NCBI GenBank assembly: GCA_022897995.1
Contig: GCA_022897995.1_4763.1
DNA from: a phage
DNA: 64,000 nt
Strand: one strand, 5' to 3'
Each line of letters opens with the position of its first letter. The stretch's first letter is position 1. Under the pieces are notes generated by a model, which had not been told where the DNA came from, did no database searches, and was given only the letters and a program-made list of their open reading frames with translations. The position numbers and the translations under genes are program-made. Positions 21,456-28,429 of this stretch are shown one piece after another.

Positions 21456-21650
21456 ATGCAAGTTTATACCAATAGCAATAAAGGCAATGATATCACACCG
21501 GGAAAGATGTATGATTTTACCCCGGCACGAGACGACGAACATCCACCGACTATCGGGTATATTGAAGATGATGCGGGGTTTCGTATTACGATCCTTCTTG
21601 ATGGTGGATGTTCTCATCTTCGCGGTGATCGTTGGGAGTTAGTACCATGA
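21456..21650 (+). CDS. small paralog family member A
   Basis: 64 aa; shares the C[SA]HL[RD]G/Y-x-W-x-[LI]V C-terminal motif with the next two ORFs. Confidence 0.5.
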   Translation: MQVYTNSNKGNDITPGKMYDFTPARDDEHPPTIGYIEDDAGFRITILLDGGCSHLRGDRWELVP

Positions 21651-21892
21651 TGTATGTGATGACACCTTATAGTAACCGCAAGTATATTACACCAAATGCA
21701 CTGTATGAATATACACCACATGAAAGATTTGCGAATAGTGGTTATATCCGTGATGATAAGGGACACCAGATTTTTATTTGTCTTAAAAATTGTGCACACT
21801 TAGACGGTCGAACATGGACACTGGTCGAAGAACCAAAACAACCTGAGAATAAAGGTCTTTGGAATGTGCTAAAAAAATTCTTGAAAAAGTAG
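21647..21892 (+). CDS. small paralog family member B
   Basis: Paralog of 21456 and 21950 (NCAHLDGRTWTLV). Confidence 0.5.
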   Translation: MMYVMTPYSNRKYITPNALYEYTPHERFANSGYIRDDKGHQIFICLKNCAHLDGRTWTLVEEPKQPENKGLWNVLKKFLKK

Positions 21893-21949: not shown

Positions 21950-22288
21950 ATGAGTGTTAAAGAAGTATTTGTTTATACTGACTATGACAGGTGCGCCTAT
22001 CTCACTGCTGGAAAACTTTACCGTTGTGAGATTATTCATGGTACGCTAGGTCGAATTATGTGCGATCCGATTACAAAATTGTGGAAAAACAATCCTAGTG
22101 AGCGAGAAACTATTATTAACCTAGATTCAGACGGTTGTTCACATTTGGACTATAGAAAATGGCATATCGTGACACATGATGCTTATGGTATTCATCTTGC
22201 TACTAAAGAATTGACTATTGACAAGTTCAAGTTTAAAGAAATCCCGTTTGTATACTGGCTTCGCAATTTGTTTAAGAAAGGAGAATAA
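21950..22288 (+). CDS. small paralog family member C
   Basis: Paralog (DGCSHLDYRKWHIV). Confidence 0.5.
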   Translation: MSVKEVFVYTDYDRCAYLTAGKLYRCEIIHGTLGRIMCDPITKLWKNNPSERETIINLDSDGCSHLDYRKWHIVTHDAYGIHLATKELTIDKFKFKEIPFVYWLRNLFKKGE

Positions 22289-23395: not shown

Positions 23396-23755
23396 ATGAA
23401 AAAGTTGACAATAATTGCTATGATTGCTATGATGTTCTCTGCTGGTGCGCTTGCTAGTAATGAGCGCCCTTATCCAAAGTTCGAATACAAAGGATTTGAG
23501 ATCAACAAAAAGATCATTAAAACCTTCTGTGATGATGATAACATGTGTAGCGATTTTATCGCACTTGAACTCGACGAAGCCTATAAACAAGGCCGAGATG
23601 AAAAACGAAAAAATCGAGCATGGGATCTGAGTATTGCCAGCTTTGCTAAAACAAAACGCAACCTGTGTGATACTGCCCCTGATAAGCAATTATGCTTTGC
23701 TTATCGCGACACACTGTTAAGCCGTTTTATGGCTGGGTTGTCTTCCCGTGACTAA
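23396..23755 (+). CDS. secreted/periplasmic hypothetical protein
   Basis: Signal peptide MKKLTIIAMIAMMFSAGALAS; several Cys. Confidence 0.5.
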   Translation: MKKLTIIAMIAMMFSAGALASNERPYPKFEYKGFEINKKIIKTFCDDDNMCSDFIALELDEAYKQGRDEKRKNRAWDLSIASFAKTKRNLCDTAPDKQLCFAYRDTLLSRFMAGLSSRD

Positions 23756-23770
23756 TGAGAGGTTTATATT

Positions 23771-24226
23771 ATGATTATTGATACTGTAAAGGGCGATCTC
23801 ATCGCCCTGTTTAAACAAGGAAACGGTCATTTAATTCATGGTTGTAATTGTTTTCATACTATGGGCGCTGGTATTGCTGCGAAGATCGCGAAAGAGTTCC
23901 CGCAAGCATTGGCTACTGACAAAAAGACACCGAGAGGAACGGCTAGTAAGCTAGGCGAGTTCAATGTTTGGCATCATACCGTTAATGGTTATAACTGGAT
24001 GGGTATTAATCTTTATACGCAATTCCGCCCAGGACCAAATGCTGAATATTCCGCTATCATCCGTGGATTCGAACAACTTAACTTCGCATTTGAAGGTACT
24101 GTTAAGCCGTTCTATATTCCTAAAATTGGTTGTGGGATTGGTGGCCTAGAATGGGAATGCGTAGAAGAAATCATTAATGATTTTACGCCGGATATCAATA
24201 TTGTGGTGGTGGAATATGACAAATAA
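23771..24226 (+). CDS. macrodomain protein (TARG1/DarG-like ADP-ribose binding/hydrolase fold)
   Basis: VKGDLIALF..HGCNC..MGAGIA...PKIGCGIGGLEWECV aligns with human TARG1 (ITYVKGDLFA..HCISEDCRMGAGIA...PRIGCGLDRLQWENV) as I recall it. Confidence 0.75.
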   Translation: MIIDTVKGDLIALFKQGNGHLIHGCNCFHTMGAGIAAKIAKEFPQALATDKKTPRGTASKLGEFNVWHHTVNGYNWMGINLYTQFRPGPNAEYSAIIRGFEQLNFAFEGTVKPFYIPKIGCGIGGLEWECVEEIINDFTPDINIVVVEYDK

Positions 24227-24410
24227 AAATGATCTCTATTCCGGTGATTGGGTGAAACGTCAATCTGTAGAAAACGTAACTTGTTTTCGTTGTTTCACTG
24301 AATACAATATAAAAACCGCTCCTGTTAGTGTTCCAAAGACAGACGGGTATTATATTAAAGAACCGCATTGCCCTAAATGTAAATGTCGATTATATTGGAG
24401 TCATCTATGA
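24216..24410 (+). CDS. small Cys-rich protein (zinc-ribbon-like)
   Basis: CFRCF...CPKCKC pattern. Confidence 0.4.
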   Translation: MTNKNDLYSGDWVKRQSVENVTCFRCFTEYNIKTAPVSVPKTDGYYIKEPHCPKCKCRLYWSHL

Positions 24411-24625
24411 AGAAGCCTAATACCGCTCACATGAAAGAAAACTGCCGATGTGTTAGATGTGGTTGGCCTATTATCTTCACTTGCTGTAACGACGACATGC
24501 AGCGTTTACCGTGGGGAATGTGGGATTGGTGGATGTATTGTAGCAATAAAGGATGCATCCACCACGAAGGCGAAGGAGTATTTCAGGAAACGCCTGATTG
24601 GGTGGAGGTGATAGAAAATGCTTGA
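24407..24625 (+). CDS. small Cys/Trp-rich protein
   Basis: CRCVRCGW...CCND...YCSNKGCIHHEGEG. Confidence 0.4.
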   Translation: MKKPNTAHMKENCRCVRCGWPIIFTCCNDDMQRLPWGMWDWWMYCSNKGCIHHEGEGVFQETPDWVEVIENA

Positions 24626-26284: not shown

Positions 26285-28429
26285 ATGCCAGAAGTAAAAG
26301 AAACTAGCATTAACACAACCATTTGGCTTCCTCATACTTTCGCGTGTTCAATTACTGCCGAATCGGAAGACCCATCTAAGACGAGGAAGGGTTATCATTG
26401 GAAAAAGGATGGTAAATTGGTCACTATGACCGATGCTCCGTCTTTTCCATTGAAGACAGTAAAGGAAGAGGACAAAACAGGCTGGTCTGTTAATGTTCGT
26501 GGGTATGCTCAAGATGACAATGAGTTTACTGGTGATTCTGTTGATATCGGTACGGAAAATTTCACCTTTGAATTGTTTGATAATCCATATGTAGAACATG
26601 TATACCCGCCACGGTCATTTATTGTTGGTGATGAAATAAAGGCAAAGATTGTTTTTCGTAGTCATATCCAGAATAATATTTCTGTAGACCTTTATTACAA
26701 CGATGGTTTGGTTGATTCCATTGATGGTGATCTAGGTTTAGACCATCGTGAATTTAAAATTGCAAAATTTGCGTGGCCTGAATTTTCCGGCACATATCGA
26801 ATGGAATTGAGCGATGAACATGATGATGTAAAATTTGTATATCCTTTCTTTGCTAGTATTGTCGAAAGTAAGGAAGTGTTTAACGTTCAAAAATACGCAC
26901 CTGCTTATTTTACCGTAGAAGATGATGCGCCGAATCAGGCCGAATATACTATTGTCCGCTACCGATTAGAGCGTGGTGATGGTACTTTGGTATATGAATC
27001 TAAAGATAAGACCTTGTATGTAACAAAACATGCTCAAGAGTCTGACGCCGGAGAATATGTTGCTTTTGTGCGTGCATATAAAGTTGTTAATGGTCCTGGG
27101 TCTGGTGAGCAATTCATCGATGGCGATAAACATCGCTTTACGGTAAATGTTAAGGAAAATGAGTTTTTCAGCCATGATTTTAGTGCTGTTGATTTTCGTT
27201 ATCCTTCTGGATCTACTGTAAACCTTGATATGCCAGTGATGCAAGCCGATAGCTCGTGGAACCGCCATTACGGTATGCTTAGTAACAACGTTTACTTTAC
27301 GTGGATGCTTGGCGGTAAGAAACTTCAAAGTAAAAAATATGGTGATGAAGGATACGACCGAATCACCCTATCTGGATTGCAATATGATAACAGCGTTGCG
27401 CTTCAATTGTTGGTTGCTCCTGCCAATCCAGCGGGTGAGCAGGTGATTCCTAACGGTCGTCCACTGTTTTATGACCGTCGTATGCTTGAGATTTATGATA
27501 AAGAGTATGATTATCGTAATATTGAAGTGGGTGAACCGATTGTTCTCAAGATCGTAGATCCTGAACCGCCAGCTAGTGATGATCCTGAACAAACACGAAC
27601 TTTGGTTATCACCAAAAACGACGTTAAAGTAACGGAACTACCGCTAGGCACTAAGGAATATAAGATCACTGACTCCGCTGACCGAGACCATAACGGAATC
27701 TGGGCGCATGAGTATCGTGATAGTCCGAGTAAAGATCCATTTAGTGCACATACCGATTTTGATATTGCTGGTCGCGCAACTTATCATGTTGAAGTTGTGC
27801 CAAATATGGAATTTGATGGTCCTCATCCGGTACAGGTGACGGAAGGGGATACGTTGACTATTGAAGCAACCATGCTTAAACCGCCAGCCTCATATGTTCC
27901 GACTTATGAGTTTAGCAAGAGTGGAGTTAAATTGCCAATTGCTGATGCAAGGACGCCGATTTATCGTAAGGCAAATGTTACCTTAGATGATGCTGGTGTT
28001 TATCGATTTGTTGCATTTGCTGATAAAAACAACAACGAAACTCTAGACCCAGGTGAGATCATCGGCTATACAAAATATGTTCAAGTTGTGGTTAATAAAC
28101 GTCCTGTTCGACCAGATGAACCTAAACCGGAAGTTAAAATTGTTACTCTGTTTAATGATTTTAGTAAAGGCCGATTTAGTCCGTGTCCGTATTGGGTAAT
28201 TGATGAACTTGTCGAACTGATGGAAGATCCGCATGGCTGGATGGGTAAACTTGAAGATGCTGTCTACTATGACTGGCAGATCACTATCTTTAATGAGTTC
28301 TTAAAAGGTAAAGATCTGTATCTTCAAGACTCCTGTAATGGTTATTGGGCTATTGTTCGTCAGAAAGACATGACAATCGAAACTGGTTACGGTCGATTTA
28401 AACACTATCACACAAATGGATTAGAGTAA
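26285..28429 (+). CDS. large multi-Ig-like-domain protein
   Basis: 714 aa with repeated Ig/I-set-like signatures (YHWKKDGK...EEDKTGWSVNV; ESDAGEYVAFV; TLDDAGVYRFVAF); distinct C-terminal domain. Confidence 0.6.
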   Translation: MPEVKETSINTTIWLPHTFACSITAESEDPSKTRKGYHWKKDGKLVTMTDAPSFPLKTVKEEDKTGWSVNVRGYAQDDNEFTGDSVDIGTENFTFELFDNPYVEHVYPPRSFIVGDEIKAKIVFRSHIQNNISVDLYYNDGLVDSIDGDLGLDHREFKIAKFAWPEFSGTYRMELSDEHDDVKFVYPFFASIVESKEVFNVQKYAPAYFTVEDDAPNQAEYTIVRYRLERGDGTLVYESKDKTLYVTKHAQESDAGEYVAFVRAYKVVNGPGSGEQFIDGDKHRFTVNVKENEFFSHDFSAVDFRYPSGSTVNLDMPVMQADSSWNRHYGMLSNNVYFTWMLGGKKLQSKKYGDEGYDRITLSGLQYDNSVALQLLVAPANPAGEQVIPNGRPLFYDRRMLEIYDKEYDYRNIEVGEPIVLKIVDPEPPASDDPEQTRTLVITKNDVKVTELPLGTKEYKITDSADRDHNGIWAHEYRDSPSKDPFSAHTDFDIAGRATYHVEVVPNMEFDGPHPVQVTEGDTLTIEATMLKPPASYVPTYEFSKSGVKLPIADARTPIYRKANVTLDDAGVYRFVAFADKNNNETLDPGEIIGYTKYVQVVVNKRPVRPDEPKPEVKIVTLFNDFSKGRFSPCPYWVIDELVELMEDPHGWMGKLEDAVYYDWQITIFNEFLKGKDLYLQDSCNGYWAIVRQKDMTIETGYGRFKHYHTNGLE

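Follow-up and report, generated by a model that had tools for sequence, protein, structure and literature searches.

A Krischvirus ortholog of T4 tk.4 (AdfM): a stand-alone phage macrodomain with a glutamine-type active site and a probable role against DarT

A widespread defence against phages is the ADP-ribosylation of DNA by DarT, and some phages carry an eraser of this mark. In phage T4, a HIDEN-SEQ screen on a DarTG2 host gave one significant hit, in which tk.4 was depleted and scored as conditionally essential; a clean tk.4 knockout was DarTG2-sensitive, and the authors named the gene adfM (bioRxiv 10.1101/2025.11.20.689424). T4 without adfA and adfN is still DarTG2-resistant, which had predicted a further factor (Johannesman et al., PMC11825919). 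PhiKZ gp104, independently named AdfM, clears DNA in vitro of the ADP-ribose that DarT2 installs, and it relieves DarT2 toxicity (Morgan et al., PMC13309987), indicating that a phage macrodomain works as an eraser. Here we analysed a 64,000-nucleotide stretch of phage DNA (GenBank assembly GCA_022897995.1, contig GCA_022897995.1_4763.1), hereafter the window, and in it the macrodomain gene at positions 23771-24226. Gene order and sequence comparison make it the ortholog, in the genus Krischvirus, of T4 tk.4 (AdfM, anti-DarT factor macrodomain), a stand-alone gene of the early region. It is probable that its product is an orphan-antitoxin-like ADP-ribosyl glycohydrolase, which would clear DarT2-installed ADP-ribose from thymidines in phage single-stranded DNA (ssDNA) with a Gln-type active site resembling that of SCO6735.

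Coding evidence and orthology to T4 tk.4

The gene and its ribosome-binding signal are as follows.

23771..24226, + strand: tk.4 (adfM) ortholog, stand-alone macrodomain coding sequence of 151 amino acids (aa), open reading frame with stop included
23757..23762, + strand: Shine-Dalgarno GAGAGG, 8 nucleotides (nt) 5' of the ATG, read from the sequence

The open reading frame (ORF) runs from the ATG at 23771 to a TAA ending at 24226. Direct reading confirmed what a first interpretation made from the DNA letters alone (the sequence-only reading) had placed there, a 151-aa protein with the motifs VKGDL, HGCNC..MGAGIA and PKIGCGIGGLEWECV. A word-indexed search returned 371 homologs at E<=1e-5, a profile search of 50% cluster representatives matched 1,334 clusters at E<=1e-30, and the ratio of nonsynonymous to synonymous substitution rates (dN/dS) against the RB49 gene is 0.15. 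Together with the family matches, these results indicate that tk.4 is clearly a true coding gene and not a chance ORF.

By megablast, the region is 94-95% identical to 59 RB49-like coliphages of the genus Krischvirus, family Straboviridae, and the window is itself that of a Krischvirus. The syntenic gene is labelled tk.4 in the RB49 record and 'macro domain protein' in the W115 record, and T4, RB49, W115 and the window share the gene order regB - vs.1 - vs - tk.4 - three small ORFs - tk - rI. Over its whole length the window protein, hereafter window Tk.4, shares 42% identity with T4 Tk.4 (E 4e-45); the two are reciprocal best hits, and the window and the complete RB49 genome each give a single macrodomain match. 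Because of the shared gene order, the 42% identity and the reciprocal single hit, we assign it as the T4 tk.4 ortholog. The full-length reciprocal best hit and the conserved position (vs - tk.4 - small ORFs - tk) also place it in the Tk.4/AdfM group, to which the window gene adds a Krischvirus member. The sequence-only reading had described the regB-tk interval as plastic and the neighbours of tk.4 as secreted. The interval is not plastic, since both T4 and RB49 keep tk.4 at the same place between vs and tk; the upstream neighbour described as secreted is Vs.

Macrodomain class, active site and the counter-DarT reading

Pfam Macro (PF01661) matched window Tk.4 end to end (residues 22-135 to model positions 1-118 of 118) at 27.4 bits, above the gathering cutoff of 22, and PHROG 335, labelled 'phosphatase', matched at 1e-61. 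An AlphaFold2 model, built on a 76-sequence family alignment (A1), reached a pLDDT of 95.6 and a pTM of 0.90 and adopts the three-layer alpha/beta/alpha macro fold. Foldseek against the Protein Data Bank (PDB) gave TARG1 (4j5s) as the best match (E 2e-10, TM 0.76-0.84), with other matches to Poa1p, Thermus DarG, M. tuberculosis DarG, BT1257 and SCO6735. The family profile, searched against PDB sequences, matched BT1257 (3e-15), SCO6735 (3e-14), TARG1 (3e-14), DarG (2e-13) and Poa1p (7e-13). In both sequence and structure the protein is nearer to TARG1/DarG/SCO6735/Poa1p ('ALC1-like') than to MacroD, the viral X-domain, PARG or macroH2A. Assignment to the TARG1/DarG/SCO6735/Poa1p class is firm, the position inside the class being undecidable from scores alone. 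Pfam, the PDB profile search, AlphaFold2 and Foldseek thus bear out the fold and class proposed in the sequence-only reading, which had named a TARG1/DarG-type macrodomain. As to the DarG side of that proposal, the macrodomain part stood, positions 2-141 of the 338 of the DarG equivalog NCBIfam NF048014 being matched, and the equivalog level did not, with 51.7 bits against a cutoff of 250.

The residues that would form the active site are located as follows.

23789..23797, + strand: K7-G8-D9, where D9 aligns with the Asp kept in the (V/I)KGD motif of TARG1, SCO6735 and BT1257 (alignment)
23837..23848, + strand: H23-G24-C25-N26 (HMMER alignment to 5e3b)
23861..23878, + strand: M31-G-A-G-I-A36, first glycine-rich ADP-ribose-binding loop, identical to MGAGIA of TARG1
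24008..24022, + strand: N80-L-Y-T-Q84, with Q84 at the catalytic-Lys position (HMMER and MAFFT alignments)
24119..24145, + strand: P117-K-I-G-C-G-I-G-G125, second glycine-rich (phosphate-binding) loop (alignments)

These positions are strongly conserved. In A1, N26 and G24 are each found in 76/76 sequences and H23 in 74/76, and G24 is kept in 242/253 of a wider set. D9, which by the TARG1 structures would contact adenine, is Asp in 62/76 and Asn in 11/76. G34 of the first loop is invariant and G32 is present in 71/76; in the second loop P117, I119, G120 and G122 (76/76) are invariant. Gln occupies position 84 in 75/76 sequences and in ~248/253 of the wider family, and its equivalent is also found in distant phage homologs (Felixounavirus, Pakpunavirus, Kuttervirus) and in one bacterial member. 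N26 corresponds to Asn27 of SCO6735 and to the Asn that the gp104 N23A construct changes in PhiKZ AdfM, G24 stands opposite SCO6735 Val25, G122 corresponds to SCO6735 Gly128, and G124 sits at the position of TARG1 Asp125.

Position 84 is that of the catalytic Lys84 of TARG1, Lys80 of DarG and the essential Gln85 of SCO6735. HMMER aligned the window NLYTQ with NMIGQ of SCO6735/BT1257 and with LITK of TARG1, and MAFFT put Q84 opposite the Lys of TARG1, M. tuberculosis (Mtb) DarG and PhiKZ gp104. The MAFFT alignment of distant references left NMIGQ of SCO6735/BT1257 in a gap block, and the equivalence of this Gln is based on two concordant HMMER alignments together with the structural equivalence given in PMC9411070. 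The TARG1 alignment behind our conclusions used the PDB-derived sequence.

The sequence-only reading had also noted that the catalytic Asp of TARG1 is replaced and had concluded that the protein may bind rather than hydrolyse. The replacement is indeed there, as Gly124. However, Mtb DarG and PhiKZ gp104 likewise have Gly at that position, and SCO6735 has Ala; DarG is without the Lys/Asp dyad and SCO6735 without both residues (PMC9411070), and Mtb DarG, SCO6735 and gp104 are all active hydrolases of ADP-ribosyl-thymidine (PMC9411070, PMC13309987). Because these enzymes hydrolyse ADP-ribosyl-thymidine DNA without the Asp, its loss is not diagnostic, and we rejected the step from Asp loss to a mere binder. 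On the alignments, the Lys-to-Gln change at position 84 is the more telling substitution. In SCO6735, Q85A/E abolishes activity on ADP-ribosyl-thymidine DNA, with very little left in N27S and a reduced level in G128E, and of SCO6735, DarG and TARG1 it is SCO6735 that works most efficiently on this substrate (PMC9411070). Window Tk.4 carries all three equivalents, N26 (Asn27), Q84 (Gln85) and G122 (Gly128), and its chemistry probably differs from the lysine chemistry of DarG.

We infer, by analogy with the T4 ortholog, that window Tk.4 has the same counter-DarT role and that it fulfils this role by hydrolysis; the counter-defence idea put forward in the sequence-only reading is supported by the published DarTG2 genetics of T4 tk.4. 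Host DarT2 would ADP-ribosylate thymidines in phage ssDNA at TNTC-type motifs and block replication. Window Tk.4 would most likely hold the ADP-ribose by its two glycine-rich loops and cut the N-glycosidic bond between ribose and thymine, so that ADP-ribose is set free and the template is usable again, and the phage would in effect carry an 'orphan antitoxin'. A Gln-type active site as in SCO6735 points to substrate positioning and water-mediated catalysis by Gln84, held by Asn26, and not to a lysine nucleophile. The window is rich in DarT2-type TNTC motifs and shows no depletion of them (2525 vs 2442 +/- 41 in shuffles), so an eraser would be useful; evasion by TNTC depletion was rejected on these same counts.

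Several points weigh against this reading. The T4 Tk.4 data are genetic, with DNA de-ADP-ribosylation stated as likely (bioRxiv 10.1101/2025.11.20.689424), and of the two AdfM lineages only the Lys-type, gp104, has been biochemically shown to hydrolyse DarT2-modified DNA (PMC13309987). Our literature search found no paper joining DarTG with Krischvirus and no further work on Tk.4. The window protein shares just 42% of its residues with T4 Tk.4, and the catalytic Lys of DarG/TARG1 is absent from it. Several features of SCO6735 are missing as well: Val25 is Gly24 and Lys34 is Ala33 in the window protein, the mobile loop after the Gln is 5 residues shorter and lacks the DNA-binding Lys89/Lys94, and the protein is mildly acidic (pI 5.9), whereas the DNA groove of SCO6735 is electropositive (PMC9411070). 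Val25 is specific to SCO6735 (PMC9411070), and in our own reading of that paper so is its extended mobile loop. Catalytically inactive SCO6735 also inhibits DarT in vitro (PMC9411070), and protection may stem partly or wholly from binding of DarT2. Finally, the IHGCNC...T30 segment of the window protein resembles IHSCNC...S of Poa1p, which acts on small ADP-ribose derivatives.

This resemblance belongs to a reading that has a small chance of being right, in which Tk.4 is an enzyme of small ADP-ribose derivatives (an Appr-1''-p phosphatase or O-acetyl-ADP-ribose deacetylase) that clears or recycles metabolites derived from nicotinamide adenine dinucleotide (NAD), and the DarTG2 effect is secondary. 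The 'phosphatase' label of PHROG 335 suggests a small-molecule role, although it is a homology transfer with no assay behind it. A Tk.4-family gene adjoins a nicotinamide phosphoribosyltransferase (NAMPT) gene in Pseudomonas phage PAK_P1 (1-1980 of the locus) and in Acinetobacter phage B09_Aci01-1; similarity to Poa1p and this adjacency hint at NAD metabolism, and in some lineages the family may be tied to NAD+ salvage or ADP-ribose recycling. In the window, however, no NAD-salvage gene adjoins tk.4. Among the Poa1p residues mutated in 6lfs/6lft, His23 is kept in 74/76 sequences and the Ser30 position is Thr30 in 54/76, but the middle of window Tk.4, the Gln84 region included, is unaligned to Poa1p pairwise, and the sole experimental phenotype for the T4 member of the family is DarTG2 sensitivity. 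We give still less credence to a protein or RNA de-ADP-ribosylase that tunes the phage's own Alt/ModB marks or erases the marks of other host ADP-ribosyltransferase (ART) defences, for instance toxins that act on mRNA or protein. Its close relatives TARG1 and SCO6735 do take ADP-ribose off proteins as well as DNA (PMC9411070), and at other genomic sites the genus encodes Alt, a paralog of the Alt C-terminus and a ModB-like protein. Yet the T4 screen picked tk.4 specifically with DarTG2 (bioRxiv 10.1101/2025.11.20.689424), the window holds no ART gene, and the family is present in 2,737 of 50,697 phage records, including the non-T4 groups Felixounavirus, Pakpunavirus and Kuttervirus; the proposal of the sequence-only reading that the gene regulates the phage's own Alt/Mod modification is unsupported on these grounds. 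T4 Alt, ModA and ModB are arginine-specific, and arginine-linked ADP-ribose is removed by ARH-type enzymes; macrodomains are not known to cleave it, which argues against these marks as a Tk.4 substrate. Queries with T4 ModA, ModB, Alt, 61.2/AdfA and 30.3/AdfN found none of these in the window. In the RB49 genome, Alt, a second Alt-C-terminal-like ORF, a ModB-like protein and an ortholog of 30.3/AdfN (NADAR) all lie outside the range of the window, and tblastn at 1e-3 detected no homolog of T4 61.2/AdfA or ModA there.

Least probable to us is a non-catalytic protein, either an ADP-ribose reader that shields modified sites or a stoichiometric DarT2 inhibitor that binds the toxin. Window Tk.4 has neither the Lys of DarG/TARG1 nor the Asp of TARG1, and even without catalytic activity SCO6735, DarG and TARG1 inhibit DarT in vitro (PMC9411070). 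On the other hand, DarG itself is without the Asp, the Asn/Gln/Gly pattern is competent in SCO6735, reported to be the most efficient of these three enzymes on DNA (PMC9411070), and N26, Q84 and G122 hardly vary across hundreds of clusters, as expected of an active site. The window protein also has no DarG C-terminal DarT-binding domain (151 aa; positions 3-141 of 329 of the PADLOC DarG model). Inhibition through interaction with DarT2 may contribute besides the ADP-ribosyl-thymidine hydrolysis that we favour.

Divergent allele patch, significance and neighbourhood of tk.4

Comparison with RB49 uncovered a mosaic within the gene.

23906..24206, + strand: divergent allele patch inside tk.4, about codons 46-146, with near-identical flanks (comparison with RB49)

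The nucleotide identity of tk.4 to RB49 is 80.7%, against 93.6-98.8% for 21 flanking genes, and its mismatches are confined to this sharply bounded segment; in the protein, residues 1-45 are 100% and residues 46-146 are 76% identical. A dS of 0.80 with the low dN/dS given above led us to reject positive selection or decay as the source of the divergence, and for the same reason the patch looks like an allele segment imported by recombination and kept under purifying selection. The window allele is found in 1 of 59 Krischvirus records (LF73P4, 98.7%), and the exact window protein is encoded on five metagenomic contigs with the same neighbours.

Krischvirus Tk.4 is 66-68% identical to its homologs in Shigella phage CM1 and Escherichia phage EduardKellenberger/Bas59 (phages of ~136-140 kb), which we take to be Vequintavirus, and 42-50% identical to orthologs in other Straboviridae. 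This difference suggests that tk.4 has been exchanged horizontally between unrelated coliphage families; in sequence comparison, neither the window allele nor the RB49 allele is closer to the Vequintavirus homologs. A bacterial family member, from Pelagimonas (P0079), is a stand-alone gene with no darT nearby, and this is consistent with descent of the Tk.4 lineage from stand-alone bacterial macrodomains and not from DarG. Some members extend C-terminally beyond the macrodomain, by ~100 aa in Felixounavirus BPS17L1 (1495-2274 of the locus) and ~50 aa in Vi01 (1426-2031 of the locus). Two Krischvirus-like variants have a truncated or internally deleted gene: P0017 diverges directly after INLY, losing Gln84 and the second glycine-rich loop, and P0061 is 92 aa long. 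These variants suggest that tk.4 is dispensable and sometimes lost.

The counter-DarT finding is already published for the T4 ortholog and the window gene is annotated in public records, and the novelty of the gene as such is low. The remaining novelty is mechanistic, in that T4-type AdfM and ~2,700 phage homologs use Gln at the catalytic Lys position of DarG/TARG1. A broader proposal, unlikely as a whole yet worth stating, is that the Tk.4 lineage is a mechanistically distinct group of ADP-ribosyl hydrolases of the Gln type in phages and bacteria (HGCN...NxYTQ; 1,300 or more clusters at 50% identity), of stand-alone bacterial origin and, as in SCO6735, with dual DNA and protein/RNA specificity. 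If so, ADP-ribosyltransferase defences other than DarT2 would be neutralised too, and the allele patch would represent the exchange of specificity-determining surfaces in an arms race. Knowing which phages carry erasers matters for predicting host range and for phage therapy with T4-like phages.

The surroundings of tk.4 are compact, with one further annotated feature directly 3' of it.

24216..24410, + strand: 64-aa zinc-binding ORF 3' of tk.4, not part of the enzyme (PF23903, 83 bits)

In the window, the neighbours of tk.4 are Vs, two zinc-binding ORFs, a membrane ORF and Tk; vs.1 carries an SLT domain, and rI.-1 comes after rI. The stop codon of vs lies at 23753-23755, and the ATG of the downstream ORF (24216) overlaps the 3' end of tk.4, by which overlap the two are probably translationally coupled. 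The two small Cys-rich ORFs directly 3' of tk.4 (24216-24410 and 24407-24625, + strand) matched Pfam Phage_zn_bind_2 (83 bits) and Phage_zn_bind (116 bits), respectively. Start/stop overlaps continue as a chain from tk.4 through these two ORFs and the membrane ORF to tk, which suggests translational coupling along it. No ORF longer than 41 aa lies on the opposite strand of the tk.4 interval, and an Rfam search of the whole window gave no match. A promoter/terminator scan yielded 26 consensus-level matches, against 16.4 +/- 4.1 expected, with nothing decisive for tk.4.

Vs (23396-23755, + strand; PF26829, 'valyl-tRNA synthetase modifier') starts with a signal-peptide-like segment, MKKLTIIAMIAMMFSAGALA, an unexpected feature if its target is, as stated, a synthetase of the cytoplasm. 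T4 vs was the strongest conditionally needed gene in minimal medium in the HIDEN-SEQ study (bioRxiv 10.1101/2025.11.20.689424). Farther downstream, between rI.-1 and the homolog of RB49 ORF084, a 714-aa ORF (26285-28429, + strand) is missing from RB49 and W115, which have ~330 nt at that spot. It gave only a weak, sub-threshold Ig_3 match in Pfam, and on metagenomic contigs L013-L015 it occurs together with the window allele of tk.4. Upstream of regB, three tandem small ORFs (21456-21650, 21632-21892 and 21950-22288, + strand) share a C-terminal motif (GGCSHLRGDRWELV, KNCAHLDGRTWTLV and DGCSHLDYRKWHIV) and look like paralogs.

Comparison with known macrodomains

T4 Tk.4 is the counterpart of the window protein in position, with vs upstream and tk downstream, in length (155 aa, against 151 aa here) and in the motifs HGCNC, MG(A/S)G and NLYTQF. 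The two differ in 58% of residues, and the second glycine-rich loop reads GCGIGGLEW in the window and GAGIGKGNW in T4. The genus background also differs from that of T4: the RB49 record annotates no gene 42 and no glucosyltransferase genes, and an AdfA/61.2 homolog is absent.

Unlike window Tk.4, DarG (M. tuberculosis 5m3i, T. aquaticus 5m31/5m3e) has the catalytic Lys (Lys80 in T. aquaticus), the position being Gln84 here. The PADLOC DarG model scored window Tk.4 at 53 bits and T4 Tk.4 at 36 bits; its coverage of the 151-aa protein leaves no C-terminal DarT-binding domain, and no darT is present among the neighbours of tk.4 in the window. Membership of DarG was rejected, as the equivalog score, the C-terminal domain, the darT neighbour and the catalytic Lys all fail. 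Human TARG1/OARD1 (4j5s) shares 27-30% identity and the VKGDL, MGAGIA and P(K/R)IGCG...W motifs with the window protein, whereas its Ser26 is Asn26 here. Its Lys84/Asp125 dyad is replaced by Gln84/Gly124, and TARG1-type catalysis was likewise rejected.

SCO6735 (Streptomyces coelicolor, 5e3b) and BT1257 (Bacteroides, 2fg1/2afc) are the top PDB profile matches and are stand-alone Gln-type proteins, 23-27% identical to window Tk.4. They are not encoded with DarT, as is also true of the Pelagimonas family member. The first glycine-rich loop sets them apart, being WGKGF in SCO6735/BT1257 and the TARG1-like MGAGIA in the window protein. Yeast Poa1p (6lfq), an ADP-ribose-1''-phosphate phosphatase represented by a PDB chain of 180 aa, acts on small molecules, and in the pairwise comparison with window Tk.4 only the N- and C-terminal thirds align.

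PhiKZ gp104 resembles window Tk.4 in being a stand-alone phage macrodomain directed against DarTG2 and in its conserved Asn (the N23A construct), which corresponds to N26. It differs in being DarG-like and Lys-type (FPTKDNW), with 36.6% identity to Mtb DarG (E 4e-28). As translated by us from PMC13309987, gp104 is 27% identical to window Tk.4 (E 2e-7) and matches T4 Tk.4 at E 0.005; its enzymology has been demonstrated, and it is imported into the phage nucleus (PMC13309987). Because gp104 is DarG-like with a Lys and only weakly similar to Tk.4, sequence comparison separates the two as non-orthologous phage macrodomain lineages, and the name 'AdfM' now spans both the Gln-type Tk.4, with its Krischvirus member, and the Lys-type gp104.

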